A DNA stretch of 64,000 nucleotides from Chiloscyllium plagiosum (lineage: Eukaryota). The notes under the pieces are model-generated. The model saw only the letters and a program-made list of their open reading frames with translations, had not been told where the DNA came from and did not search any database. The stretch covers positions 1,043,306 to 1,107,305 of the forward strand of contig NC_057755.1 in assembly GCF_004010195.1 (NCBI RefSeq). The letters are read 5' to 3'. The position numbers and the translations under genes are program-made. Below, piece by piece: positions 1,838-54,641 of the stretch; position 1 is the stretch's first letter; each line of letters opens with the position of its first letter.

Positions 1838-4680
1838 AAAAGGGTAAGATTCTGAAGGGAGAATATAGGAAGTTAGGCAGGATATTAAAAGGAGGACCTT
1901 GAGGGTCGTCGTATCTGGATTATCCTTGTTGACAAGAACTAGTGAGTCTAGGAAGAGGAGGATAGAGCAGATGAATGCGCGGCTGAATAGTTGGTGCAGG
2001 GTAGATGGGTTCACATTTTTGGATCATTGGAATATTTCTTGGGGGAGAATCTGAATAACGAGGACAGGTTCCACCTAAATTGGAAGAAAACGTATTTACT
2101 TGCAGGAAAATTTGGTCAAGATGCTCAGAAATACTGAAACTAGTAAGGTTGGAGTGTGGGTGCAGGGATGATGGGGAGTGTGGGTGCTGGTGTGGTGTGG
2201 CCAGGGAAATGGTGAGGAAAGAAATCAGTCTGAGACTGATACAGTTGTGAAAAGGAGTACGTGCAATCGCCAGGGCAAGCAGTTTCAAAGCAGAGAATGA
2301 GACAGAACTGACAAACTAAATTATATTTATTCTGCCACAAGATGCCTAACAGGGAAGGCAGGTGATCTGAGGTCATCGTTAGGAACATGGGATTGTGATA
2401 TCATTCGTAATAACAAATATGTGGTTCAGTGATAGACAAGACTGGCAGCTTAAAGTTGCAGGACAGAAATGCTGTAGGAAAGAAATGCAGATGACAAGGG
2501 AAGAGGGGAGTTGCTTTTTGACAAGGGTTAATATGACGGCTGAACGTAGGGATGATATTACCCGGAAAACATCCAGGGAGGTTATTTGGTGGAATTGAGA
2601 ATTATGAACGGGCGGATTTCTTTGTTGGGATTGCACTGGAGAGACCCACTAGTCAGTGGGAAATTGAGAAAAAGATTTGCAAGGGGATCTCAGTTATTTG
2701 TCAGAATGATAGTGTGATGATTGTAGGGGATTGTTAAATTTCCTAACATTGACTGGGTCTGCAACGTTATTAAGTGTAGGGATGAAAGTAATGAAAGGGT
2801 ACCTGAAGAGAGAAGTAGACCCCTCAAAGATCAGCAAGGCAGCCTGTGTGTTAAAGTGCTGAAGATGGCGGAGATAATAAACGAGTATTGTTTATCATTG
2901 TTCACTGTGGAGAAAGAACTGGTATATATACAATGTGAGGAAATAAAAGGTGCCATTTTGAAAAATGTCCATATTACAGAGCAAAATGTGCTCGCTGTCA
3001 AATAATGCATCAAGTTTGATAAATCTCAAGGATCTTATCTGTGGGAAGCTAGGGATATGATTTCTGGACCCTTGTTGAGATACTTGTATCACTAACCATC
3101 GCAGGTGAGGTGTCAGAAGACTGAAGGTTGTCACATGTGTGCCGCTATTTAAGAAAGGTGGTGAGGAAACTCTCCGAACTATAGACAGGTGAGTCTGACA
3201 TTGGTGGTGGGCGAGGTGATGGAGGGAGGTCCTGATCGACAGGATTTACATGTACCCTGTGTTTGGATAGGCAAGGACTAATTAGTGATTGTCAACATAG
3301 CTTTGCATGTGCGAAATCATGTCTCAGGAACTAGATTGGGCTACTTAAAGAAGTAACGAAGAGGTTTGATGAGGGCAGAGTGTTGGATGTGATCCAAGTG
3401 GTCTTCAGCAAGGAGTTTGACAAGATTCCTCATAATAGACTGTCAGCAAGGTTATACCAAATGCAATAGAGGGAGAAGTAGCTATTTGGACGCAGAACTC
3501 GCTCGAAAGTAGAAGATAGAGCATGGTTAGAGTGGGTTGCTTTTCAGACTGGAGGCCTGTGAGCAGTATTGTCTCACAAGGATGGGCACTTAATCGCTGC
3601 TTTGTGTCGTTTATGTAAATGATTTCGATGTGAAAATGGGAAGTATGGTTACTAAGTTTGCAAATGTCACGAAAATTGGAAGTGTAGTAGTCATGATTTG
3701 GAGATGCCGGTGTTGGACTGGGGTGTACAAAGTTAAAAATCACACAACACCAGGTTATAGTCCTACATGTTTAATTGGAAGCACACTAACTTTCGGAGAG
3801 ACGCTCCTTCAGTAGATAGCGAAGAAAGTTACCTCAGTGTACAACTGGATATTGATCAGATCGGCCAATGAGCCGAGCAGTTGCAGATGGAATTTATAAA
3901 TGGCTGATGCTGCATTTTCGAACTGCAAATCAGGGGAGGACCTTTTAACTTAACGGCAAGATCCTGTGGAGTGTTACTGAACAAAGAGACTTTGGATTGC
4001 AGTTTCATAGTTCCTTGAAAGTGGAGTCTTCGGTAGATAGGATAGTGAAGAAGGTATTTGCTATGTGCTCTATTATTGTTCAGAGCCTTGATTATAGGAA
4101 TTGTGAGGTCATGTTGTGGGCAGACAGGACATTGGACAGTCCACTTTTGGAAAAAGTGCGTGCAATTCTGGTCGCCCTCCTGTCAGACGGATGCTGTGAA
4201 TCATGAATGGGTTCATAAGAAATATAGAAGGTTGTTGCCAGGTTCGGAGGGTTTGAGTGACAGGGAAAGGCTGAATAGTCTGGGTATGTTTTTAATGGAG
4301 CATTGGAGGCTGAGGGGTGATATTATACAAGTTTGTAAAATCATGAGGAGTATGGAAAGAATAAATAGACAAACACATTTCCCTATGAGTTTGGTGAGTC
4401 CAGAGATAGAGAGCATAGGTTCTGGGTCACAGAATGTAAAAGGTACCGAATGGAAAATCTTTCTCATGCAAAGAGTGGTGCATGTATAGAATGAACTGCC
4501 AGAGGAAGTGGTGGTGACTGGTACAATTGCAACATTTCAAAGTTAACAGAATGGGTTAATTATTGGAAAGGATTAAAGGGATATGTGAGCAAATGGGATG
4601 ATATTATTACAGAATATCTGGTCAACCATGACGATTTGGACCAATGGGTCTCTTTCCTTGATCTACATTTCTTTGACACG
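1838..4680 (+). mobile_element. Old degenerate CR1 LINE (end of ORF1 plus ORF2 with deletions), intronic in GPCR unit A
   Basis: Colinear with 15365-18060 and 49880-53315; decayed RT and C-terminal peptides (CVQFWSP, RLRGDII); CR1-like 3' end near 4640-4680. Confidence 0.88.
3691..3810 (-). mobile_element. 120-bp Penelope-like terminal-repeat fragment (second family) with a truncated hammerhead core
   Basis: Absent from paralogous CR1 copies (about 17195 and 52440); flanked by AGTAG (3686-3690 and 3811-3815); minus strand reads GA-AGGAGCGTCTCTCC-GAAA-GTTA with the 5' part of CUGANGA lost. Confidence 0.6.
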
Positions 4681-4934
4681 ATCTCCGCCCAGCATGCTAA
4701 CAGCAGTCAAACAAATATTTCATCGTAGATGAATACCAACACTATAAATCTCAATTCCATTTTGGAAATCAATCCCCGTCGTTTGTTTTCAATGACAGGG
4801 ACTTGTGCGAGGAGAATACCGAGTTGATGTTTTGAATTCCTTGAGAAATGTTCAGAGGAAGGTGTTCTGATGAAGAATAATTGCATTAACTCTAATTCTC
4901 TCTCCACTGATGCTGCCACACCTGTTGAGTTTCA

Positions 4935-5386
4935 AGTCAAATTATTCTACTAATCCCAGGTGGTTGGGTTTTAAGTGGTTTGATATAATTTTAACCCCTT
5001 TCATCCCATTCGTGTTAATTCCATTAATGAACATTCTGATGGTCAGGTACATTTTAACGGCCAGTCGAGGCCACAAGAGCCTGAGGAGTCAAAGAAAGGG
5101 AGAGAGTCAAAAATACACAGATATGTAGAGCCGGAAAAAGTCGGTAATTTCCCGCCTCGCCATATCCATCAGCCTCATATTTCTGTGGGTAGTGTACGGT
5201 GCCAACATCCTCTACTTTAGCATTAAAGAAGCACATCATTGGTGGAACTGGCATCTGATCAATTTCACCTGGTCCGGAGAATTGCTGAAGGATTTAAGCT
5301 GCAGCATGAGCACATTATTTTGGGCAGCGACTCTGCCCAAGTTCAGAGCGAAGTTCAAGAATGCGGTGCAGCAATTGGTCACATAA
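4935..5386 (+). pseudogene. GPR139-like GPCR pseudogene copy A (ECL2 to C-terminus only)
   Basis: Colinear with 19185-19636; about 870 bp (acceptor through ECL2) deleted at 4934/4935; in-frame TAG at 5126-5128 where copy B has GAG. Confidence 0.92.
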
Positions 5387-5781
5387 ATAATTCACTTAGG
5401 ATGGAAAGATGATAGAAAGAGGCTGGAGGAATAATTTTAAATGATTGACTGGCTGTGAGTGATGTGTTCAACTCGAACATTGGGTCTTCACAGATTGCCC
5501 TTTGGATAAGTGTTAAAAGCCAGCAGGATGTGTCTCTGCGTTTTCCCTGCAGGGGAGGAGGGGGAAGGAAAGAAACAGCCGTTCCTGCACCATGATGATT
5601 GTCAGACTCTCTCCGTTCGGTTCGCAATAAACACTTTATTACAGTAAGGAAAGGCTCCAGGTGCTGTTGATCCATCATCACATCTTCCGCTGTCAGTCTG
5701 TCTGTACTTGTGAGCGTGCGTCTGTGTGTGTGAAAGCGCGCATGCATGTGTGTGTAGATTTGTTCATGTCTCTCAGTATGA

Positions 5782-6100
5782 GAGTGGGCGGCACGGTGGC
5801 ACAGTGGTTAGCACTGCTGCCTCGCAGCGCCAGAGACCCGGGTTCAATTCCCGACTCAGGCGACTGACTGTGTGGAGTTTGCACGTTCTCCCCGTGTCTG
5901 CGTGGGTTTCCTCCGGGGGCTCCGGTTTCCTCCCACAGTCCAAAGATGTGCAAGTCAGGTGAATTGGCCATGCTAAATAGCCGGTAGTGTTAGGTAAAGG
6001 GGTAAATGTAGGGGTATGGGTGGGTTACGCTTCGGCGGGTCGGTGTGGACTTGTTGGGCCGAAGGGCCTGTTTCCACACTGTAAGTAATCTAATCTAATC
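5782..6100 (+). mobile_element. HE1-type tRNA-derived V-SINE, full length
   Basis: A box TGGCACAGTGG at 5797-5807 and B box GGTTCAATTCC at 5841-5851; V-domain (gtggagtttgcacgttctcccc...ggtttcctcccaca); CR1-like 3' end; (TAATC)n tail; TSD TATGA at 5777-5781 and 6101-6105; site empty in paralogs near 20970 and 56365. Confidence 0.93.
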
Positions 6101-6105
6101 TATGA

Positions 6106-6500
6106 CTGTATTCTTGTGTCTGTGGATGTGTGTGCAATCTGTCCGTGCATCGGCGTGCTCCTTTGTGTCACATTATGTCTGTTTTTCTGGCTCTCTGAGA
6201 GCACGTGTACATGTGTGAGGGGTGTACCCCCTTCTGTATTCCTGCGTGTGTTGCGAGGGTGTGGTAATGTTATTGTGTCTTTGTATAGGTGTGTTATGAC
6301 ATTTCAATTTGACTGTCTTATTGTGCGAATGTGCACTTGCGTGAGTTGCATGTGTGTGAGTGTGTTTTTGTTTATCAGTATGTTCCTATATCTCACTTTG
6401 ACTGTATTTCTGTGTGTGAGTGTGTTTTTGTGTGCATGTGTGTGTGTGATGGTGTGGGCGTGCTTTTGTGTCCCTTTGGGTGTGTTTTTGCCTCTGTCTG
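6106..6500. repeat. GT-rich low-complexity tract downstream of GPCR copy A
   Basis: Degenerate (GT)n, paralogous to 20975-21345 and 56370-56760. Confidence 0.85.
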
Positions 6501-9264
6501 ATCATAAGACTCCGTCTCCTGAAAAATGACAAGTGAACTCTACAGCAGGTCATGATGCACAGAGTTCTGTCAATGGCATATTTCTGGCAACCTGGGAAAT
6601 ATCTGAATATCAATATCAGTACCTCCTGCACTCTAAGAGCTGAACTGTTACTTCAGTTCAAGGACCTAAGTTTAATGAACGAATCAAGACAGAGTAATAT
6701 TCAGTGAAAGGCAGGATGCCAATTCTTTTGTCCAGATTGAACCAAGGATGCAATTTATAAATATTGTTTTCTTGTTGAAGGTGTTTGCGTCCCTCTATAA
6801 ATAAAGTTACATATTGGATCATGAGGCTATACATTGCAGGAGCGGATTAGTCCATTCAGCCCGTCGACTGTGCTCTGCCATTTGATCATGGAGGATCTGT
6901 TTTTCAATTCTACTCTTCTGCCTTCTGCCCATAACTTTTTATTCTCTTCACAATCAGGAACCCATATATCAGTATTGTTAATACATTTGTTAAGGAGCAG
7001 ATTAGACCCTCTCAAAACATGTCAGGATGGTAGCCCAGACCCTAACTCTTCTACTTGCTTTGAGCAGGTGTGGAATGGATATTCCTGGAGTGATGGAGCT
7101 GATTAGGATTCCTCGGTTTTAAATAAAACAGGATATATTTACAGTTTACCGAGTAGAACACAAACAATGGAGAACATAACACAGAATGCATTAACCTAAC
7201 TGAAAACCAACAGATGATGCCAAATTAATGAAATCTCCAAATTCCTGCAACAATCCTGCTCAGCACCACATGTCAAAACAGGTAAAATTAAACACCGGAT
7301 CTTACATGGGAGATGTCAGGGAGAGGTTCAGCATCAAACAATTTCTTCCCTGTCGCTGTTCCTTTTACCATCAATCTAAAAAACTGACTGCTTGCTAACA
7401 CGCAAACCAAACTAAACCATATCAGAGAAAAGCTGAGCTGGGAGAATTCGCCACTCCACTTCCATTGCCTTTTTTGGCTGTAAGAAGCATTTTGCTGAGG
7501 CAGTCTCTGTTAGGTATCATGAAATTCGCCCGACAACACGACCAAACTTGAAACCCCAGAACCGTTGCATTTGCAAACAATGTAAGAAAAAAAAGGTATC
7601 ACAACCTTGGTAGAGGAACAGCACCATCACATATTCAATATCCCGATCTCCACAGCCATCTGCGGCAATGATTTCCATCAATCAACCACGCTGTGGCTGA
7701 CTAAATTCATTCTCAACTCAGTTCTAAAGGTGGTCGCTTCACACTGAGGCCGTGGCTTCCGGTCCTAGTTTCTCCTACATGTCAATAGAGATGTTCACGC
7801 TTTTTCATAAATATTTTTGTGTCTTGGAACCTTTACAGGTGATATACAAGCATTGCCATGCATTGCAGCTGTACACGTTAATAGATGAAATATCGTTCTT
7901 TGGAAGTGTTTATGAGTGCATAAATATTGTCATGTATTGGAACTGTTCCTGTTTATGTATACTGCGCTGTAATGGAACTGTTCATGTTTGTAAATAAATA
8001 TTGTTCTGTATTGGAGCTGTTCCTGTTTATCGATAAACATCAGTGTGTGTTGAAGCTGTGCCTGTCTCCTAATCGTCAGCAACACTGTGTCTGACGATAT
8101 GGTGTGAATGCTGAGCTCCACCTGTGCTTTGGGATGGATCTGCCGTCCCAGTGTCTCCAGGAGGGGTAGCTGCACACAGCAGCATCTGGCACATATTAGC
8201 GGTTTTCAGCAATAAATAGGCAGGGTCATCTGATTTCAAATTATATATTCGGGGAATAATGACTGAAGAGCACCGGGGAACAGTGAGAGTTAAAAAGAGA
8301 CAGAGTAGGCGTTAAAGATTGTAATAGACAGACAATTCACGAGCGAATAATTTGGAAAGTATTAAACTAACAGTATTAAGGAGAAGATTAAATAGAAAGT
8401 AATAGGACATGGATTTTTAAAATTGAACAAGGATAGGATTAAATACAGAAGAAGAGCATATAATTTAAAATAAAGTAATGGAGAGAGGGGTAAATGGAGA
8501 GGTATGGAAAGAAGATGGAGTAGAGTGGAGCAGGCAAAGGGTAAAAGAAAGGGGAAAGGGAGAGGATTGAATTCAAAGTAATAGGAGGAGAGATATACAC
8601 AGATATATACAGTAGAATGAAGTATGTTGATTTCGCGGGGTGCAGGTGAGAGGGTTAATGCAGGAAACGCTGTAGTGATTATAATAAGATCAGTCAGGTG
8701 GATCTCAAGGGCCCCCTTACACCCCACCCGGTCCCCACAAAAGCCCTTTGTTCTTCAGCTTTCTGCAGTTGTTTTACATTGAAAAAAGTAGTCAGTTCTT
8801 GTCCTCTGCTGCACTGCTTCGATGCCAAGTGTACTCTTCCTCAGATGAAGAGACCCAAACTGGGCTACTCCATCAGGAGTGGGTATGTCCAGTCTCCATG
8901 GAATTGCAGACCTGTACCATTCCCTCCTGAGCTCAAGTCCATTATCTCCAAAGTAGCATTTGCCTTTCTCATAGCCTGCTGCACCTACACGTTGGCTTCC
9001 AATGACTCAGGAACAAGGACAGAAAGCGATCCCTTTTGGTGTTCAAAACATCTCAATCCCTATAATTTATCAAAAATTCTTTCAGATTATTTCTCCTCTA
9101 ACAAAATCGCTAACATCACATTTATTTATGTTTCATCTGTCATGTTATTTCTCAGACACTCCATACTCTCCACACTCAGAAAACAACTATGCACACCACA
9201 ATGCAATCATCGATCTCTGCAATATTACATCTGCAGTGATCTACAGTAAGCAGGTTAGCAGATT

Positions 9265-12315: not shown

Positions 12316-12403
12316 CAGTGAGGCGATTAAATACTTAGACACACTCCTGAAGAACTGATTATCTAATCCCACACATCAAGGAGGTTGTGCTGCAACCATG
12401 AGA

Positions 12404-12576
12404 CAGTGAGGTCTGCAGATGCTGGAGATCAGAGTTGAGAGTTTATTGCTGGAAAAGTACAACAGGTCAGGCAGCATTCGTGGAGCAGGAAAATCGACGT
12501 TTCAAGCCAAAGTCGATTTTCCTGCTCCTTGCATGTTGCCTGACCTGCTTTGCTTTTCCAGCAATGCACTCTCAAC
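12404..12576. mobile_element. Fold-back Penelope-like terminal-repeat element (inverted arms 12434-12498 and 12512-12576)
   Basis: Family head gtgaggtctgcagatgctggagatcagag; ~65-bp imperfect inverted repeat; central hammerhead region collapsed. Confidence 0.75.
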
Positions 12577-12810
12577 AGTGCCCCGACAATATCCTTCTGG
12601 ATCCATTATGTGCTCTAGACCCTGATCAGACACCCACGTTCAGATGTAATTCCATAATATCCATCACAAATTTACTACTCTCACTCTGAGCCACAGCCTA
12701 CACAAAATAAATTCCCTCACCCCCTGCTAGACCTGAAACACTGAAACTAAATGAGACACTGGGTGGCTCACACATATGCGGTTTAGTGCACAGTTTTGGT
12801 CATCTCCGAG

Positions 12811-12968
12811 AAGAAAGTGAGTACTGCAAATGCTGGAGTTCAGAGTCGAGAGTGTGTTGCTGGAAAAACACAGCAGGTCATGTAGCATCTGAAGCAAGAG
12901 ATTCGATATTTCTGGCAAGAGCCCTTCATCAGGGCTTATTTCCTGCTCCTCGGATGCAGCCTGAACTT
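12811..12968 (-). mobile_element. Penelope-like terminal-repeat element with a degenerate hammerhead core
   Basis: Same family head; minus strand 12933-12904 reads CCTGATGA-AGGGC-TCTT-GCCA-GAAA-TATC; short inverted arm follows. Confidence 0.7.
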
Positions 12969-18062: not shown

Positions 18063-18761
18063 CGATCTCCGTCTAGCATGCTAACAGCAGTTAAACAAAT
18101 ATTTCATCGTAAATGAATACCAACAATATGAATCTCAATTCCATTGTGGAAATCAATCCCCGTCATTTGTTTTCAATGATAGGTCCTTGTGCAAGGAGTA
18201 AACCGAGTTGATGTTTTGAATTCCTTGAGAAATATTCAGAGGAAGATGTTACAATGTAGAAAAATTGTATTAATTCTAATTCTCTCTCCATAGCTACCAC
18301 ACCTGTTGCGTTTCACCAGCTACATCTGTTTTATTTTCATATTTCTGGTATCCATAGTTCTTTTATTTATTTTATTAAAAAATTTCACTTCTCAGAAGTA
18401 ATTCTTAGAATTGTGGAATCTGACTGTACCAAAGAGGTCTGTTAGTCCATCAAGTCTGTGCTATCAATGCTGGACTATATATGGTCTCGTCCCAGATGAC
18501 TGTCAAAGTTTGAAACGTTTCCAACATCTGAAACCCTCCCAAGCACTGAATTATTAGAACCCGCACCATTACCTGGGTGAAAGTCTTTTTCACAAATGTC
18601 CTCCAATCTGTCTATGAGTCACCTTAAATATTATGCCCTTTTGCCACCTGCCAATTCCTTGTTCAACTTAGATTTGAAGATATTCTATTGCTCTCTTGGC
18701 AGACATGGACAATGATTGATCAGTGACTTCCGATTTGTATTTTAAATTCTGTCTCTTTCAG

Positions 18762-19636
18762 TTAATTTCCTGCTGATTTTGGTTCTCTCACGGGGAAAGT
18801 GTGGCCTCTCTAACTGCACAACCCGCTGCCTATTGGCTATGGCAATGTCGGATCTACTGTTCATTCTCACGAAGGTCATGCTATGGCATTGGAAAGAACT
18901 TTACTGCCAAGGCTGTTTCCTCACCATCACCCCTGTGTGCAGAACTGTCTTTTTCCTGATGCGTGTTGCCACAGACTGTTCTGTCTGGTTCACTCTTCTT
19001 TTCTCCTTTGATCGTTATGTGGCCATTTGCTGCCTGAAACTGAAGAGAAAATATTGGGTAGAAAAAGCCCAGGCTGTGGCTCTGGCTGCAACCAGCATTC
19101 TGGTCTGTTCAAAAAACATTCCCTTCTATTTTCGGAATAAACCTGCGTCAATAGTTGACAATGTTCCGAGGTATTGCCAGATAAAGTCAAGTTATTTTAC
19201 TGATCCCAGGTGGCTGGGCTTTAAGTGGTTTGATATAGTTTTCACCCCTTTCATCCCATTCGTGTTAATTCTGTTGATGAACATTCTGATGGTCAGGTAC
19301 ATTTTAATGGCTATTCGAGTCCGGAAGAGACTGAGGGGTCAGACGAAGGGAGAGAGTCACAAAGACACAGATATGGAGAACCGGAGGAATTCGGTGATTT
19401 CCCTCCTCGCCATATCCATCAGCCTCATACTTCTCTGGGTAGTGTACGGTGCCAACATCCTCTACTTTCGTATTAAAGCAGCACATCGTTGGTGGAACTG
19501 GCGTCTGATCAATTTCACGTGGGTCGGAGAATTGCTGAAGGATTTAAGCTGCAGCACGAACACATTATTTTATGCAGCGACTCTGCCCAAGTTCAGAGAC
19601 AAGTTCAGGAATGCGGTGCAGCAATTGGTCACATAA
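18762..19636 (+). CDS. GPR139/GPR142-like class A orphan GPCR copy B, coding exon 2 (313 aa with exon 1)
   Basis: Pyrimidine tract and acceptor tctgtctctttcag at 18761; uninterrupted frame NFLLILVLSRGKCGLS, TM2 LAMAMSDLL, TM3 FSFDRYVAICC, TM5 PFVLILLMNIL, TM6 RRNSVISLLAISISLILLW, TM7 SCSTNTLFYAATLPKFR; TAA at 19634-19636. Family-level call, not an orthology claim. Confidence 0.9.
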
Positions 19637-32760: not shown

Positions 32761-32807
32761 GATTTGTGGGACTTGGGCGTCGCTGACTGGCCAGTATTGA
32801 TATCACA

Positions 32808-33016
32808 GGAGAAAGTGAGGTCTGCAGATGCTGGAGATCAGAGCTGGAAATGTGTTGCTGGAAAAGCGCAGCAGGTCAGGCAGCATCCAGGGAACAGGAG
32901 AACCGACGTTTCGGGCATAAGCCCTTCCTGAAGAAGGGCTTATGCACGAAACGTCGATTCTCCTGTTCCCTGGATGCTGCCTGACCTGCTGCGTTTTTCC
33001 AGCAACACATTTCCAG
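32808..33016. mobile_element. Young fold-back Penelope-like element with TSD and hammerhead core
   Basis: 84-bp inverted arms 32844-32927 and 32933-33016 (3 mismatches counted by eye), 5-nt loop; direct repeat CCAGTATTGATATCACA at 32791-32807 and 33013-33029. Confidence 0.85.
32928..32958 (+). ncRNA. Minimal hammerhead ribozyme core (one stem II mismatch)
   Basis: CTGAAGA-A-GGGC-TTAT-GCAC-GAAA-CGTC; predicted cleavage after C32955. Confidence 0.55.
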
Positions 33017-33706
33017 TATTGATATCACATCCCAACTTGTCCTTGAGAAGGTGGTGGTGAGCTGCCTTTTTGAATCGATACAGTCCACTTGCTGTGTGTT
33101 TATCCAGGCAAATAGGGTTGTTCCACCATACTCCTGACTTGTGCCTTGTGGTAAGAATTTGTTCGGTCTGGAGGTGACTTGTTCACCACAGTCTCACTAG
33201 TCTCTGACTTGCTCTTGTCGCCACTGTGTTTATGCGGTGAGTCGAGTTGAGCTTCTGGTCAATGGCAACCCCAAGGATGTTGACAGTGGGAGATTCAGTG
33301 ATGGCAATACCGTTGAATGTCAAGGGGCAGTGGTTACAATGTCTCATACTGACGATGGTCATTTTATTGCATGTGTGTGGTGCGAGTGTTACTTGCCACT
33401 TGACAGCGCAAACCTGGATATTGTACAGATCGGTTGCATTTGAGCACGAACTGCTTCAATGTCTCAGGAGTCGCTAACGGTTCGGAAAACGGTGCAATCA
33501 TCGGCCAACAGCCTCTCTTCTGACCTTGTGATAGAGAGAAAGACATTGATGAAGCAGATGAAGATTGTTGGGCCGAGGACGCTACCCTGAGGGACTCCTG
33601 CAGAGATCTCCTGGAACTGAGATGACTGACCCACAATCATCTTTCATCATTCATATAAATGACTTGGATTTGAACACAGGAGGTACAGTTAGCTTTCAGG
33701 TGACAC

Positions 33707-35572
33707 CATAGAACATAAAACATAGAACAATACAGCACAGAACAGGCCCTTCGGCCCACGATGTTGTGCCGAACATTTGTCCGAGCTTAAGCACTCATTC
33801 AGGTACCTATCCAATTGCCGCTTCAAGGTCACCAATGATTCTGACTCTGCCACACCCACAGGCAGCGCATTCCACGCCCGCACCACTGTCTGGGTAAAGA
33901 ACCTACCCCTGACGTTCCCTCTATACCTTCCACTCTTCACCTTAAATTTATGTCCCCTTGTAACACTCTGTTGTACCCTGGGAAAACGTTTCTGACTGTC
34001 TACTCTATCTATTCCTCTGATCATCTTATAAACCTCTATCAAGTCACCCCTCATCCTTCACCGTTCCAATGAGAAAAGGCCTAGCACGCTCAACCTATCT
34101 TCGTACGACCTATTCTCCATTCCAGGCAACATCCTGGTAAATCTTCTCTGCACCCTCTCCAAAGCTTCCACATCTTTCCGAAAGTGAGGCGACCAGAACT
34201 GCACACAGTACTCCAAATGTGGCCTAACCAAGGTCCTGTACAGCTGCAACATCACTTCATGACTCTTGAATTCAATCCCTCTGCTAATGAACGCTAATAC
34301 ACCATGGGCCTTCTTACAAGCTCTATCCACCTGAGTGGTAACTTTCAAAGATCTATCAACATAGACCCCAAGATCTCTCTGCTCCTCCACCTTACTAAGA
34401 ACCCTACCGTTAACCCTGTATTCCGCATTCTTATTTGTCCTTCCAAAATGGACAATCTCACACTTGACAGGGTTGAACTCCATCTGCCACTCCTCAGCCA
34501 AGCTCTGCATCATATCTAAATCCCTTTGCAGCCGACAATAGCCCTCCTCACTATCCACACCTCGACCAATCTTCGTATCATCTGTAAATTTACTGACCCA
34601 CCCTTCGACTCCCCCTTCCAAGTCATTAATAAAAATTACAAACAGCAGAGGACCAAGAACTGATCCCTGCAGAACTCCACTTGTAACTGGGCTCCAGGCT
34701 GAATATTTACCATCTACCACCACTATCTGACTTCGACCGGTTAGCCAGTTTTCTATCCAACTGGCCAAATTTCCCACTATCCCCTGCCTCCTGACTTTCC
34801 ACATAAGCCTACCATGGGGAACCTTATCAAATGCCTTACTAAAATCCATGTACACTACATCCACTGCTCTACCCTCATCCACATGCTTGGTCACCTCCTC
34901 AAAGAATTCAATAAGACTTGTAAGGCAAAACCTACCCCTCACAAATCCGTGCTGGCTGTACCTAATCAAACAGTGCCCTTCCAGATACTCATAAATCCTA
35001 TCCCTCGGTACCCTTTCCATTACTTTGCCTACCACCGAACTAAGACTAACTGGCCTGTAATTCCCGGAGTTATCCCTATTCCCTTTTTTGAACAGGGGCA
35101 CAACATTCGCAACTCTCCAATCCCCTGGTACCACCGCCGTTGACAGTGAAGATGAAAAGATCATTGCCAACGGCTCTGCAATTTCCTCTCTTGCTTCCCA
35201 CATAATCCTAGGATATATATTTCCCGTCAGGCCCGGGGAACTTGTCTAACCTCAAGTTTTTCAAAATGCCCAACACATCTTCCTTCCTAACAAGTATCTC
35301 TTCTACCTTACCAGTCCGTTTCACACTCTCCTCTTCAACAATACGGTCCCTCTCATTTGTAAATACTGAAGAAAACTACTCATTCAAGACCTCTCCTATC
35401 TCTTCCGACTCAATACACAGTCTCCCACAACTGTCCTTGATCGGACCTAGCCTTGTTCTCGTCATTTTCATGTTTCTCACATACGCATATAATGCCTTGG
35501 GGTTATCCTTGATCCTACCCGCCAAAGAGTTTTCATGCCCTCTCTTAGCTCTCCTAATCCCTTTCTTCAGCT
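33707..35572 (-). mobile_element. Young 5'-truncated CR1 LINE with a long intact RT frame
   Basis: ORF 34058-35203 (381 aa) has QHGFVRGR, YMDFSKAFDKVPH, GVLQGSVLGP and KFTDDTK; frameshift into 33689-34054; (GTTCTAT)n-type tail at 33707-33730; splits the host CR1 between gacac and caaaatt. Confidence 0.96.
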
Positions 35573-36470: not shown

Positions 36471-37329
36471 ACCTATTCCTTGTCTGCAAAGATGAGTTCA
36501 ACAAATATTCCATGTTAGATGAATATCAACACTTTAAATCTCAATTGCTGTTTTGAAATGAATCCCTGTTTTTTGCTTGCAATGATAGAGTCTTATGTGG
36601 GGAGGTACCTGAGGTGATGTTTTGAGTTCAGTGACCCATATTCTGATGAACAGTGATTCTATTCACTCTGTTTCTCTCCACACAAATGCTGACATACCTG
36701 TTGGGTTTTGCCAGATATATCTGATTCGGTTTCACGTTTATAGTATTCAAATTCCTTTCATTTATTTCACTAAAATGATTTACTTCCCAACCTGCCTCCC
36801 AGAAGGAATTTTAAGAATCAGAGAATCGGACTGTGCAGAAGAGATTCTCTGTTCCATCCAGTTTGTGCTGTCAAAGTGACACGAAATCTACACTCGTCCC
36901 AGCTTCCAGCACTAAACTCATGCTCTCGAATAATATGACACTTGAAGTGGTCACCCAGGGAGGTTTATTAAAACTTTGTGAGGTTTCCTGATTCCATGAC
37001 GCTCCCAGGCACTGAATTACCAGACCGCCATCATTCTCTGGGTGAAAACCCCTTCCTCAGATCCCCTCTAATCCTCTTCCTTTTCACCTTGAAAGATATG
37101 CGCCCACCTATCACAACCATCTGTCGAATTCCTACCTACACTTGGAAAAATGGAGGACTGAGCAGCTTCGAAATGGGACAGGCCACTGGAGCTGTCCTCG
37201 TCAAACTTGACATCTGAACACTCCCAGCTGACCCAGTTAGGTGCTAAGATCTTCCATTGCTCTCTAGTCAGAACGGGCAATGTTTGATCAGTAATTTCCA
37301 ATTTCCATTTTGCATTCTGTCTCTTTCAA

Positions 37330-38188
37330 TTAAGTTCCTGGTGATTTTGGTCCTCCACATGCAAGGTGCGATCTCTAACTGGACAACGCACTGCCCAGTG
37401 GCTGTGGCAACGTCGGATCTACTGTTCATTTTCACGAAGAACATATTGTGGCAACTCGAATTCTTTTAATTCCCAAGGTGTTTCCTGGACCTTACCCCTG
37501 TGTACAGTTCTGTCTTTGTCCTGGTCAGTCAACCACAGACTGTTCCACCTGATTCACTGTCCTTTTCTACATTGATCGTTTTGTGGCCAATTGCTGCCTG
37601 AAAATGAAGAGAAAATATTGGACAGAAAAAACCTTCACTGTGACTCTCGTGACAACTGGAATTCTGCTCTGTTCAAAAAATACTCGCTTCCATTTTTGGT
37701 GTAAACCTATGAAGATAATTGACAATGTTCCCTGGTTGTGCCGAACAATGTCAAGTTATTTTACTGATCCCAGATGGCTGGGATTTACGTGTTTTAATAT
37801 CATTTTAACCACATTCATCCCATTCGTGTTAATTCTGTTGATGAATAAACTGAAGGTCAGGTACATTTTAGTGACGAGTCTAGTCCTCAAGGGCCTAAGG
37901 GGTCAGAGGAACGGATGGAGTCGCAAAGACACAGAGATTGAGTGCCGGAGGACGTCAGTGATTTACCTCCTCACTATACCCATCAGATTCATACTTGTGT
38001 GGTTAGTATATGGTGGAGGTATCTTATACTTTGGCATCAAAGGAACGAATGTAGTAAAGTACAAATATCTAGTTGATTTTAAGTCTATCGGAGAAATGCT
38101 GAAGGATTTCAGCCGCAGCACGAACATATTATTTTATGCAGTGACTCGGCCCAAGTTCAGAGCGAAGTTCAGGAATGTGGTCACGTAA
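37330..38188 (+). pseudogene. GPR139-like GPCR pseudogene copy C (divergent subtype)
   Basis: Acceptor mutated (ctttcaa instead of ctttcag); frameshifts and a stop in TM1-TM3; the 3' frame 37583-38188 still reads FTDPRWLGF, PFVLILLMN and STNILFYAVTRPKFR; no exon 1 found upstream. Confidence 0.9.
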
Positions 38189-38928
38189 ATTCTTCACTTA
38201 ATGACTCAGCAAAACAATTGAGAGAGCTCCAGAGGCAGCAGCAGTATTCCCAGTGCAGGAATTGCAAACGCACGGCCAGGATTCCATCAGCACAATCACA
38301 TGGATCTGAGTATAACACCCAGTGGTGAATGGGAAGGAGGGGTAACAGGATGGATCACCACTCAACGCGCTCACGAACACGCTGCTATCCATGATTGACT
38401 GACAGATTGTCACATACGGGGACACACAGGCCATGAGCAGCAGGCGGCCATTCAGCCCTTCGAGTCTGGTCCTACTGACATACCAGAAGATCGCGGCTCC
38501 TTGAGTACCATTCACATACACCCCACGCACCCACCACCAAAAACCTGAAAAAGAATGTAACCACCTCCGCCTTCAACAATACTGAAAGATGTAACAAAGG
38601 GACATCAGGTCAGGGAGCAAGAGGGACTGCCAGTGGCAGAGCAGGATGGAACGGGGCTGCAGGCGTGATTAGAAATGTCGGACTGGCTGTGAGTGATGGG
38701 TTTCGCTGGAACATTGGGTCTTCATGGACTGCCCTGTGGATGAGTGTTAAAGACTGGAAAGATAGGTCTCCACATTTCCCCTGCAGAGGAGGAGGAGGAG
38801 ATCAGAAACTGTCCCTCCTGCACCATGATGTTTGTCAGACTCTCTCTGTTCAGCTCACAATAATCACTTCATTCCAACAAGAGAAAGCTTGTGATCCCCT
38901 CACCTGAATTGGTTATTATTTTATTCAG

Positions 38929-39235
38929 AGAGAAAGTGAAGACTGCAGATGCTGGAGATCAGAGCTGAAAATGTGTTGCTGGAAAAGCGCAACAGGTCAG
39001 GCAGCATTCAATGAGCTGGAGAATCGACGTTTCGGGCATGAGCCCTTCTTCAGGGATGAGGAAAATGTGCCAAGCAGGCTAAGATAAAAGGTCGGGAGGA
39101 GGGACTTGGGGGAGGGGCGTTGGAAATGCGATAGGTGGAAGGAGGTTAAGGTGGGGGTGGGGGCGGAGAGGTCAGGAAGAAGATTGCAGGTTATGAAGAT
39201 GGTGCTGAGTTCGAGGGTTGGGACTGAGACAAGGT
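38929..39235 (-). mobile_element. Penelope-like element terminal repeat plus adjacent body
   Basis: Same family head as 32808; not folded back, continues into a purine-rich (+ strand) body; contains the best hammerhead core. Confidence 0.75.
39020..39058 (-). ncRNA. Minimal type I hammerhead ribozyme, core intact
   Basis: Minus strand CUGAAGA-A-GGGC-UCAU-GCCC-GAAA-CGUC with a perfect stem II, palindromic ACGU stem III and GUC site (C at 39026); stem I pairing is weak. Confidence 0.7.
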
Positions 39236-39289
39236 ATGATTTCAGTTTTTTTTATGTGTGAGGATCTGGGTGTGATTCTGGGTCGATGT

Positions 39290-39725
39290 GTAAATGTGTT
39301 CCTGTTTTGGAGGATGACTGTTTATTTTTATGTGTGTGTGTGTTCCTGGTCTGTATGTCCATCGGTTCCACTATCTCTGTATAACTGTATTTGTTTGTGT
39401 GAGAGTGAAGATGTGGGTGTGTTAATGTGCCTGTGTGTCAGTGTTTTCGCATTCTGCAGTATGATTGTACTCCTCTGTGCGTCTGTGGGAGTGTGGATGT
39501 GTGCTGTGTTAGTGTGTTCTCATATCTGTCTGTATGAGTGTGTGTGTGTATACGTGTGTGTGTCTGTGTGTCTGTGTCTGTGTCTGTGTGCGTGTGTGCA
39601 AGTGGGGGAGGCGGGTATTGGTGCCTTCCTCTTTCATGTTATATTCCTGTGTCTCAGTTTTAGTGCATTTCTCTGTGTGGCTGTGTTTCTGTATCCTTCA
39701 GGGTGTGGCTATGTCTCTGTCTGAT
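39290..39725. repeat. GT-rich low-complexity tract
   Basis: Degenerate (GT)n and (GTGTCT)n. Confidence 0.85.
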
Positions 39726-45299: not shown

Positions 45300-46687
45300 G
45301 TAAGTGCCTTGCAACATTGAATTTATGTGAAACTGGCTGAGGATTCTCTGCAGATTCACTCTGTTACTGATAATGATGCATGGGCATATTGTGCCCCAAA
45401 GTCACACAGTGGCAGAAGATCAGTAATTTAGTCTCAGATTACAGACACCCCTTGGAATCCCCATCATCGCAGATTCCGCAGGAACTGTCTGCGAATTTAT
45501 TCATCTCTTCTGGGAAATTCCAGAATCATCTCCATTTCAATTGGAGACTACAGAGAATTTCGATGGAATTGAGAAAATGAATCACTTTGGAAATTATACG
45601 CGGTAGTATTTTTAAGTAGAGAGTACAAAATCATTCAGTTTGTTTGTTTGTTTGTTTCTGTTTTTTGTTTTGAGTGAATAAGCAAGGGGCTTCTCTGATG
45701 ATCTGAAGTTAATAGCTAACTTGAAGTTATTTCTGTAATCACAGAAAGTTGTTTTAAAAATTACGTTTGGGATTTGACTATATGCTGAATGGTTTTGTGC
45801 ATGAGTGAACCTTTGTTACTTTTGATGCTTGCAACCCAGCATGATATTAATGGAGCCTGAAAGGTATGTTGGAGCGTTCTGGAATTTGTGATTATGGAAG
45901 AAAGCCGTAACTGAGGAAGCATAACTTTCACTTCTTTCATTTCATCATTTTCTCTAGTTCCTGTAAGACCCTGATTGGATGTGTAGATCAGCGCTCATGC
46001 GAAGGAAATGAAAGCTTTAGTCAATTCCATTGCCTTGGAATGAAGATCTTGTTTTGGTCCCAGACAGAAGTGTTGACACAAAAAAAAAGTTATGGAGAGA
46101 TTGTTTATAGCTGAGTACGTTGACATTCAGGTATGTGGAAGCTCCAAGAAGAAATTTACTGCAGTTCCAGTTTAGAAGTGGCTGTCACAAGTCATTCAAC
46201 CAAGTGATAGATACAGGGAGTCCGGTGTGAGTATCACGTATGGATTGTTTTATTGGGAACGGCACTGGGATTCGTGTTTTATATGATATATAGATGTTAT
46301 GTCCTTTTATGCCATTTATGCATTGTTTTGAGGTTAAAGGGAATTATACATTTATTCTGTGTTCATTGCCTTTGAATCTGCATTATAAGTACGTAGTTTT
46401 GTTTATTCTATTTTGTCGTCAGTTCTTTTGTGAGAAATTTCTGTTTTGTTGTGGAAGCAATATTTGCAGCATTGTGTGTTTACGATTCAACAAGACATCC
46501 CTTTGTTAAATCAATACAAAAGAGGTTGAAATCCATCAAGCTGGGTTTCTATCGATGATCTGGCTAGTTCTGTAATTAATCAGCTGGTATCAGAACAGAA
46601 GCGAGGCGATTAAATACTTAGACACACTCCTGAGGAACGAATAAACTAATCCCACATTTCAAGTAGGTTGTGCCGCAACTATGAGGC

Positions 46688-46886
46688 AATGAGTCTGCAG
46701 ATACTGAAGATCAGAGTTGAGAGTGTATTGCTGGAAAAGTACAGCAGGTCAGGGAGCATTCGAGGCGCAGGAATATCGACGTTTCAGCCCACAGTCCTCT
46801 TTAAGGGCTCCGGCCCAAAAAGTCGATTTTACTGTTCCTTACATGCTGCCTGACCTTCTGTGCTTTTCTAGCAATGCACTCTCAAC
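46688..46886. mobile_element. Fold-back Penelope-like element (paralog of 12404-12576)
   Basis: Inverted arms about 46716-46780 and 46822-46886; longer centre than in the paralog. Confidence 0.72.
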
Positions 46887-47119
46887 TGTGCCCCAACTAT
46901 ATCCTTCTAGATCCATTATATGCTCTAGATCCTGATCAGACATCCACGCTGAGATGTAATTCCATATTATTACTCACAATTGTACTACTCTCACTCTGAG
47001 CCACAGCCAACGCAAAATAAATTTTCTCACCACCTGCCAGACCTGTAACTCTGGAACTAAATGAGACACTGGGTTGCTCATACATATGCAGTTTAGTGCA
47101 CAGTTCTGGTCATCTCCGA

Positions 47120-47560
47120 GAAGAAAGTGAGTACTGCAGATGCTGGAGTTCAGAGTCGAGAGTGTGTTGCTGGAAAAACATAGTCAGAAACTTTTTCCCC
47201 GGGTACAAGAGAGTGTTACAAGGGGACATAAATTTAAGGTGAAGGGTGGAAGGTATAGGGGAGATGTCAGGGGTGGGTTCTTTACCCAGGGAGTGGTGGG
47301 AGCATGGAATGCGCTGCCTGTGGGAGTGGTAGAGTCAGAATCTTTGGTGACCTTTAAGCGGCAATTGGATAGGTACATGGATGGGTGCTTAAGCTAGGAC
47401 AAATGTTCGGCACAACATCGTGGGCCGAAGGGCCTGTTCTGTGCTGTATTGTTCTATGTTCTATGTTCTATGTTCTATGTCATGTGGCATTCGAAGCAGG
47501 CGATTCAACATTTCGGGCAAAAGGTCTTATTCTCCTGCTCCTCGGATGCAGCCTGACCTT
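47120..47560. mobile_element. Penelope-like element (paralog of 12811-12968) interrupted by a CR1 3' end
   Basis: Head at 47120-47179; remainder at 47479-47560. Confidence 0.7.
47180..47478 (+). mobile_element. Young CR1 3' end with (GTTCTAT)4 tail
   Basis: Highly similar to the reverse complement of 33707-34000; absent from the paralog at about 12870. Confidence 0.93.
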
Positions 47561-53315: not shown

Positions 53316-54024
53316 AACTACGCCCAGCATGCTAACAGCAGTCAAACAAATATTTCATCGTAGATGAATACCAACACTATGAATCTCAATTCCATTTTGG
53401 AAATCAATCCCCATCTTATGTTTTCAATGGTAAGGCCTGGTGCGAGAAAACTGAGTTGATATTTTGAATTCCTTGAGAAATGTTCAGAGGAAGATGTTCT
53501 GATGAAGAATAATTGCATTAACTCTAATTGTCTCTCCACAGATGCTGCCACAGCTGGTGAGTTTCACCAGCTATTTCTGTTTTATTTTCATATTTCTAGT
53601 ATCCATAGCTCTTTTCTTTATTTTATAGAAATGTTTCACTTCCCAACCTACTTCCCAGAAGTAATTCTTAGAATTGTGGAATCTGACAGTACTGAAGAGG
53701 TCCGTCAGTCCATCAAGCTTGTGCTATTACGGTTAGACTATATCTCGTCTCGTCGCAGGTATCTGCCAAAGTTTGTGACGTTTCCAACCTCAACAACTCT
53801 CCCAAGCACTGAATTATTAGAACCCACACCACTATCTGGGTGAAAGTCTTTTTCTCAAATGTCTCCAAACCTTTTATGATTCACCTTAAAAAATTAAGAC
53901 CTTTTGCCATCTGTCAATTCCCTGTTCAAGTTAGATATGAAGATCTTCCATTGCTGTCTGGGCAGACATAGAATATGTTTGATCAATGACTTCCGATTCG
54001 TATCATACATTCGGTCTCTTTCAG

Positions 54025-54641
54025 TTAATTTCCTGCTGATTTTGGTTCTCTCATGAGGAAAGTGTGGCCTCTCGTTCTGCACACAGGCTGCCTGTTGGCT
54101 ATGGCAATGTCGGATCTACTGTTCATTCTCACCAAGATCATGCTGTGGCGATGGAATGCACTTTACTGCAAAGGTTGTTTACTCACCATCACCCCTGTGT
54201 GCAGAATTATCTTTGTCCTGATCCGTGTTGCCACAGACTGTTCCGTCTGGTTCACTGTCCTTTTCTCCTTTGATCGTTTTGTGACCATTTGCTGCCTGAA
54301 AATGAAGAGAAAATATTGGACAGAAAAAGCCTAACCTGAGGGGTCAGAGGAAGGGAAACAGTCACAAAGACACAGATATGGAGCGCCGGAGGAAGTCAGT
54401 CATTTCCCTCCTCGCCATATCCATCAGCCTCAAAATTCTGTGAGTAGTACACGGTGCAAACATCCTCTACTTTCGCAATGAATAGGTACATCGTTAGTGG
54501 AACTGGCGTCTGACCAAGTTCACGTGGTCTGGAGAAATGCTGACGGATTTTAGTTTCAGCACGAACACATTATTTTATGCAGCGACTCTGCCCAAGTTCA
54601 GAATGAATTTCAGGAATGCGGTTCAGCAACTGGTCACATAG
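54025..54641 (+). pseudogene. GPR139-like GPCR pseudogene copy D, exon 2
   Basis: Intact acceptor at 54024; TGA at 54054-54056 (R codon in copy B); ~260-bp deletion at about 54335 removes TM4-TM5; further stops; DRF motif retained. Confidence 0.93.

Follow-up and report, generated by a model that had tools for sequence, protein, structure and literature searches.

A minimal hammerhead ribozyme motif in an abundant, 5'-truncated shark repeat that is likely of Penelope-like origin

We consider it very probable that the motif found about 39 kb into a 64,000-nt stretch of Chiloscyllium plagiosum DNA (hereafter the window) is a minimal hammerhead ribozyme within a 5'-truncated, very abundant shark repeat, likely the terminal repeat of a Penelope-like element (PLE), and that this copy (the 39-kb copy) is probably a dead insertion. 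As the preliminary description had it, the minus strand reads from 39053 to 39026 with all core nucleotides, a perfect 4-bp stem II and a GUC triplet: CUGAAGA (39053-39047), a single A (39046), GGGC (39045-39042), a UCAU loop, GCCC (39037-39034), GAAA (39033-39030) and CGUC (39029-39026), with the predicted cut between 39026 and 39025. Its account of the other two stems was equally accurate: stem III was confined to the palindrome ACGU, and stem I was weak, with pairs 1 and 4 formed and pairs 2 and 3 unpaired, leaving a single contiguous pair. The motif and the repeat around it comprised the following features:

39026 to 39053, minus strand: minimal hammerhead core, with CUGAAGA, an extra A, a 4-bp stem II, a UCAU loop, GAAA, palindromic ACGU and C17 at 39026
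39054 to 39057, minus strand: 5' arm of stem I, where 39055 is C in this copy but U in about 99% of the family; many copies of the family start near this point
39022 to 39025, minus strand: 3' arm of stem I, directly after the predicted cut
38930 to 39241, minus strand: 5'-truncated repeat copy, read as a PLE 3' terminal repeat (pLTR) plus tail, delimited by its depth profile
38930 to 38967, minus strand: tail of 38 nt, present in some copies only, which separates the two 3' ends of the family and was placed from loose alignment ends

Hammerhead positions are numbered by the usual convention, the same as in the papers cited below. The 39-kb copy possessed the core of minimal hammerheads (CUGANGA ... 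GAAA ... UH), the extra base between A9 and G10.1 (the A at 39046), the G10.1-C11.1 pair and a helix II of GGGC and GCCC, and the palindromic ACGU at 39030-39027 replaced helix III (the 15.1-16.1 segment); helix I fell short of the at least two contiguous pairs of that class. A strict minimal-hammerhead descriptor, with stem II of at least 4 bp and a palindromic stem III, matched the window once, at the 39-kb motif, and matched none of 60 dinucleotide shuffles. When at least one stem I pair was additionally demanded a match occurred in 1 of 60 shuffles, and a loose descriptor with a 3-bp stem II and no need for the palindrome matched in 13 of 60. The bare CUGANGA..GAAA pattern was found 12 times in the window against 7.6 +/- 2.9 expected, no excess over chance. 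An Rfam search returned no hammerhead family at E values up to 5. The Rfam matches obtained were rejected as chance hairpins, and no folding signal beyond stem II was detected at the motif region (z -0.3 to -1.5).

Four public sequencing runs (X1, X15, X21 and X22) were aligned to 38780-39380 at 80% likeness. Depth, in the hundreds or thousands outside the repeat, jumped to millions at 38927-38947 and dropped back past a right limit of about 39241, close to the span of 38929-39235 first given for the repeat. In the DNA run X1, 45,117 contigs matched the repeat with a summed depth in the millions, compared with a depth of about 14 for the sole contig identical to the unique flank. This excess, together with four independent insertions in 64 kb, suggests a family of well over ten thousand copies, contig counts and depth being no copy number in themselves. 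Loose ends marked two 3' ends, one before 38930 (1198 contigs in X1, 754 reads in X21, 216 contigs in X15) and one before 38968 (279 contigs in X1, 163 reads in X21), and there was no simple-repeat or poly(A) end at 38930. Within 39026-39053 the loop base 39040 was the sole variable position among the differences listed, and among these the family-majority stem I had two pairs, a U-U mismatch and one further pair. The C at 39055 of the 39-kb copy was private: this position was U in 327 of 332 reads in X21 and in 2.51 of 2.53 million depth in X1, and the change abolished the second stem I pair present in about 99% of family sequences.

No tandem array was present at the 39-kb site, and go-back joints were rare (3 and 1 contigs among those listed); opposite-strand joints, such as 39046/39054, occurred in 5 contigs and 13 reads. 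A clean empty site for the 39-kb copy was not found, as the left flank aligned to three paralogues up to 38917 and the right flank stayed unaligned. Family reads numbered 2,996 in the RNA run X21, where both orientations occurred but just 12 reads reached 99% likeness; X22 had none. RNA starts or ends did not pile up in X21, a fragmented poly(A) single-cell library that is poorly suited to this purpose and cannot test cleavage. The shark repeat was not detected by pattern scans of viral contigs, metagenome contigs or prokaryote genomes or by blastn against phages, and no copy of it turned up in motif searches of the supplement of PMC8557442, of 12 of the 24 supplementary files of PMC8455134 or of the portions of full texts covered.

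Further copies within the window were arranged as palindromes, representing three independent insertions with the tail confined to one arm each (strand not assigned):

32809 to 33016: head-to-head palindromic insertion, joined inside the ribozyme, with a tail on the left arm and none on the right
12400 to 12577: second palindromic insertion, core lost, copied to 46686-46887 by a segmental duplication
46686 to 46887: paralogue of the 12.4-kb palindrome, with a 14-nt flanking repeat containing 1 mismatch
12810 to 12966: third palindromic insertion, whose left arm kept CUGAUGA but not the first stem II pair and reads AUAU where the 39-kb copy has ACGU
47120 to 47558: paralogue of the 12.9-kb palindrome, with a LINE 3' end inserted at about 47182-47472

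Left arms ended at the equivalent of about 38930 and right arms at about 38960-38991. The 32.8-kb palindrome lay between exact 17-nt flanking repeats (32791-32807 and 33013-33029), 4 nt of which are common to the element end. Two of six sites in the window carried target-site duplications (TSDs) above chance, with flanking-repeat scores of 17 and 11, where 60 random flank pairs reached 10 at most; at the other four, including the 39-kb copy, no flanking repeat exceeded chance. The LINE 3' end at 47182-47472, which has a (TGTTCTA)n tail and is 92% identical to 33707-33997, entered its palindrome after the segmental duplication. The palindromes at 32809-33016, 12400-12577 and 46686-46887 were predicted to fold into long, near-perfect hairpins (-181, -110 and -115 kcal/mol) that bury the ribozyme, and two of these three gave weak microRNA-like Rfam matches; on these modelled folds, the palindromic insertions are possible sources of double-stranded RNA.

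The loop variants listed in the preliminary description, UCAU (39053, minus strand), UUAU (32928, plus strand) and UCUU (12932, minus strand), were all real, but the copy at 32928 had a stem II mismatch and the one at 12932 lacked its first stem II pair and had AUC as its cut-site triplet. Two further arms (32927, minus strand, and 46803, plus strand) lacked CUGA. Stem II was 90% paired across five aligned window copies, and among these no compensatory change was found in stem I or in stem II, where covariation had been put forward as a check. Since the loops differ by single substitutions without stem II covariation, their variation is not evidence of selection. Stem III showed one double change from CG to UA that kept the palindrome (AUAU in the 12.9-kb copy), a result reached by 362 of 500 shuffles, and the change may reflect CpG decay.

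Depth fell 3.3-fold (X1), 3.9-fold (X21) and 4.2-fold (X15) between the bins 39032-39052 and 39053-39073, and loose ends behind 39054 were among the top entries in all three runs, with an agreement of 0.34-0.40 after three family bases. Because this step in depth coincides with heterogeneous loose ends, the front edge of stem I (about 39054-39057) appears to be where many copies start; the predicted cut at 39025 was not among the six loose-end positions listed per run for X1, X21 and X15. Inversion joints likewise gathered at family position 39054-39057 and not at the cut site. A 1,996-nt contig (X15 record 16) carried the upstream part of the repeat (39056-39231) followed, at the ribozyme start, by about 1.8 kb of other sequence, and, judging by this single contig, foreign sequence may adjoin the stem I edge on either side. 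The minus strand at 39079-39105, about 25 nt upstream of the core, has a pyrimidine tract followed by AG and resembles a splice acceptor; introns can occur in PLE pLTRs. We rejected a splice acceptor as the cause of the 5' pile-up, like that at helix I of D. virilis, because no AG immediately precedes 39057 and the sequences upstream of the loose ends have nothing in common.

It is possible, if rather doubtful, that the front edge of the ribozyme and not its cut site sets the 5' end of most new copies, with an uncut RNA template on which reverse transcription starts or stalls at this point, and that the same spot seeds head-to-head inversions. Should this be so, the motif would be a structural signal in the copying cycle, the genome would be strewn with ribozyme-headed mini-elements of about 125 nt, and the function of PLE hammerheads would become testable from genome data. 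An alternative is that the mobile unit is itself a non-autonomous RNA of about 125 nt, headed by the ribozyme and running from the stem I front edge to the tail, with its own start site and moved in trans by a PLE protein, in which case the 312-bp copy here would represent a longer and less common version. The depth step and loose ends in three runs agree with such a unit, as do the palindrome arms, none of which (0 of 10) extends upstream of 39055, and the D. virilis Penelope pLTR contains an internal promoter according to the available portion of PMC2377424. However, copies like the 39-kb one reach about 190 nt past the front edge, the depth declines step by step towards 39241 as expected from ordinary 5' truncation, an identical step would arise from reverse transcriptase stopping at a folded ribozyme or from subfamilies with differing upstream sequence, and RNA starts and ends showed no pile-up in a library poorly suited to reveal one. 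We regard this alternative as improbable and retain a 5'-truncated PLE terminal repeat as the preferred reading.

Segmental duplications of 13-19 kb follow one another along the window, which also has LINE fragments (RVT_1, Exo_endo_phos_2) and four tandemly duplicated GPR139-like receptor gene copies:

4913 to 5383: GPR139-like receptor gene copy
18674 to 19633: GPR139-like receptor gene copy
37266 to 38182: GPR139-like receptor gene copy
53937 to 54638: GPR139-like receptor gene copy

All four have stops or frameshifts relative to their best relative, the 18.7-kb copy retaining a 296-aa open frame, and their best protein relatives come from bamboo and epaulette sharks at 67-75% identity. At positions 1-256 of the window a 128-nt unit occurs in two exact copies, possibly an assembly artefact. 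Relative to a frameshifted receptor copy the motif is antisense and about 750-870 nt downstream, and the 39-kb insert is missing from the three paralogous units of the cluster.

Since only pair 1 and the isolated pair 4 of stem I form, we classed the 39-kb copy as a damaged and not an intact ribozyme. For a dimer of this copy, the fold needed for one active site was predicted at -12.8 kcal/mol against -24.1 kcal/mol for the best dimer fold, and the nearest other CUGA-bearing copy lies about 6 kb away on the opposite strand, so that no partner ribozyme exists within 6 kb. With the active dimer fold about 11 kcal/mol worse and no partner at hand, the modelled copy is probably inert, a dead insertion. 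In its functional sense, the term "intact" used in the preliminary description was thus too strong, because the private base at 39055 leaves one contiguous stem I pair, a dimer partner is lacking nearby and stem II does not covary.

Alternatively, the 39-kb copy could still function, or have been co-opted, as a ribozyme cleaving a host transcript near the receptor gene. This reading draws on its unbroken core and stem II, on published PLE hammerheads with a helix I of just 2 bp (PMC4209133, in the part available) and on one PLE hammerhead that is assisted by protein (PMC11167929, likewise). Against it stand the single contiguous stem I pair without a partner, the antisense position about 750 nt downstream of a receptor copy that is itself frameshifted, the absence of the insert from the three paralogous units, the lack of a folding signal and the failure of selected retrozyme dimers to cleave in 8 of 9 tests described in the accessible literature. 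We judge a functional ribozyme at this site to be very unlikely, and return to a damaged, probably inert copy.

The suggestion that the repeat is a ribozyme-bearing Penelope derivative held for the minimal type I motif and for the repeat, which is very likely a PLE terminal piece; a direct link to an open reading frame (ORF) with reverse transcriptase (RT) or GIY-YIG endonuclease did not emerge for the shark family. The two 3' ends of the family, 38 nt apart, correspond to the 30-40-bp tail feature of PLEs, and an inverted 5'-truncated copy at the 5' end is present in the window palindromes, not in the 39-kb copy itself. It is because of this tail, the inverted copies and the TSDs in the family, combined with ORF linkage of the same motif type elsewhere, that we assign the repeat to PLEs. 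Consistent with the statement that no Penelope protein is visible, the window contained no RT/GIY-YIG ORF: none of its 190 stop-free segments of at least 75 aa contained a GIY-YIG domain and the best tblastn match of a PLE protein had an E value of 0.19. Two translations of the repeat, used as protein queries, had no real relative; the sole phmmer match, P0003, was rejected as a repetitive chitin-binding insect protein. On the minus strand at 38930-39007, a frame of about 26 codons begins with ATG and runs without a stop to the 3' end of the element, here and in the 32.8-kb arm. By analogy with the anole element, this frame after the ribozyme could be a candidate PLE ORF start; a search with its 32.8-kb version found no relative.

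Linkage elsewhere came from a motif scan of 16 of 64 parts of metagenome contigs, which reported 121 stretches; the 120 loci analysed gave 127 matches, 95 of them distinct and 93 with enough flanking sequence. A PLE ORF remnant lay upstream on the same strand in 35 of the 127 matches, within 180 nt in 34 of these and spanning 16 stem I types. These loci belong to organisms other than the shark and resemble its repeat in little more than the 28-nt motif, so the ORF linkage applies at the level of the motif class. In the 93 distinct motifs, the free stem I formed a mean of 3.5 pairs compared with 1.6 for shuffled partners (0 of 2000 shuffles as high, kinship inflating the contrast), with many compensatory types, and the unconstrained fourth stem II pair formed in 68 against 39.5 expected, a count inflated by related sequences. 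The family-majority stem I of the shark repeat (two pairs, the U-U mismatch and one pair, among the differences listed) is shorter than this 3.5-pair mean. One locus (L003:1060-3609) held a nearly full-length PLE, with RT, a CxxC linker, GIY-YIG and one frameshift, between inverted and direct copies of the motif; its RT and GIY-YIG scores were under the curated Pfam cut-offs, and its Atlas neighbours carry RT and GIY-YIG. This element is inserted next to polymerase-like ORF remnants. A GC-rich match without stem I (L048, 1615-1643, minus strand) was unlike the other loci and may be another hammerhead type from a non-animal source.

That the repeat is instead a SINE or another non-PLE element with an incidental hammerhead look, for which one could cite the missing ORF link in the shark family, the lack of an Rfam hammerhead match and the weak stem I, is scarcely credible given a strict descriptor match in none of 60 shuffles, the PLE-type tail, palindromes and TSDs, a motif type that is ORF-linked and covarying in other animals, and a 38930 end free of simple repeat or poly(A).

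We infer, then, that the shark family is a PLE, that its parent element was capable of cleavage and that the 39-kb copy is inactive. The mechanism we propose is taken from published PLE work and set beside what was directly observed here, namely the motif, its boundaries, the abundance, the two 3' ends, the palindromes and the private stem I change. In a tandem transcript of the parent, two motifs would pair through their ACGU palindromes to make stem III and cut after GUC; this cleavage would be weak and probably aided by the element's protein. Minimal hammerheads are described as cleaving weakly and as dimers (Cervera and de la Peña 2014, PMC4209133, available in part), dimer cleavage being also credited to Lünse et al. 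in the accessible part of PMC6765202. The GIY-YIG endonuclease of the element would then nick DNA, and RT would start within the RNA at one of two sites (the equivalents of 38930 and 38968) and copy upstream through the uncut ribozyme. In the anole PLE, as far as the available text goes, reverse transcription by the PLE protein starts at two internal sites that define the tail, uncut RNA is the main template, and the protein is required for ribozyme cleavage in vitro while cleavage itself is dispensable in vitro (Frangieh et al. 2024, PMC11167929). The shark copies, which start at the tail sites and cross the GUC, fit with uncut RNA as template. RT would usually stop near the front edge of the ribozyme and, in the 39-kb copy, about 190 nt beyond it; this copy would thus be a longer stump than usual, with the stem I change gained later.

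On its own, the 39-kb copy matters little, being one damaged relic among very many; what it adds is cartilaginous fish to the range of minimal PLE hammerheads. Non-LTR retrozymes, on which Cervera and de la Peña reportedly worked in 2020, form tandem arrays with a ribozyme in each unit according to the sources available in part, whereas the 39-kb copy is solo and the other window copies are inverted pairs. They share with the shark repeat a non-coding character, a type I hammerhead and an origin in PLE pLTRs, and are reported from one chondrichthyan genome, in the accessible portion of a preprint (bioRxiv 10.64898/2026.07.22.740005). Penelope is listed among whale-shark repeats in the part of PMC8455134 available. 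We found no shark PLE hammerheads in the literature, and the supplements of bioRxiv preprints and the whale-shark repeat library may contain one.

Endonuclease-bearing PLEs (Penelope/Poseidon and Neptune), as portrayed in the available parts of Arkhipova et al. 2013 (PMC3846280), Craig et al. 2021 (PMC8557442) and Frangieh et al. 2024 (PMC11167929), share with the shark family 5' truncation, a tail of 30-40 bp that may be absent and stems from two RT start sites, inverted pLTRs placed head to head with the tail on one arm, and TSDs, in the shark family at two of six sites. Compared with these elements, the shark inserts are stumps without any ORF, and their TSDs are 13-17 bp long in the window, compared with 8-10 bp in the rotifer. 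A clustering of 5' ends at the ribozyme front edge, as in the shark, was not found in the portions of these sources that describe endonuclease-bearing PLEs. A CxxC linker between RT and endonuclease is a mark of the Neptune clade; the metagenomic element L003, with the same motif type, has such a linker, which for the shark family is a lead only.

The closest known counterparts are the minimal hammerheads in the pLTRs of metazoan PLEs, whose class, features and occurrence in fish, coelacanth, Xenopus and reptiles were already described in 2014 (PMC4209133, here and below as far as the available parts extend). Both have the type I layout, CUGANGA with an extra base, G10.1-C11.1, GAAA and an ACGU palindrome without loop 3, and the 39-kb motif has every core feature given there (an extra base at 9/10.1, G10.1-C11.1 and a palindromic 15.2-16.2). 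In both, copies are mainly solo in truncated elements, and some form pairs on opposite strands. Among the motifs of Fig. S3, those of Acropora, which Table S1 gives as a Neptune element, and Nematostella(2) have nearly the layout of the shark motif (PMC4209133), and no cartilaginous fish appears among the Fig. S3 rows or Table S1 entries. Relative to the published class, the shark stem II, at 4 bp, is on the short side, stem I is reduced to a single contiguous pair in the 39-kb copy and about 2+1 in the family majority, and the copy number is apparently well above the 4,000-9,000 motifs of coelacanth and Xenopus (PMC4209133). A large shark family whose copies cross the cut site and stop at the front edge of the ribozyme offers good material for testing the role of hammerheads in PLE movement.
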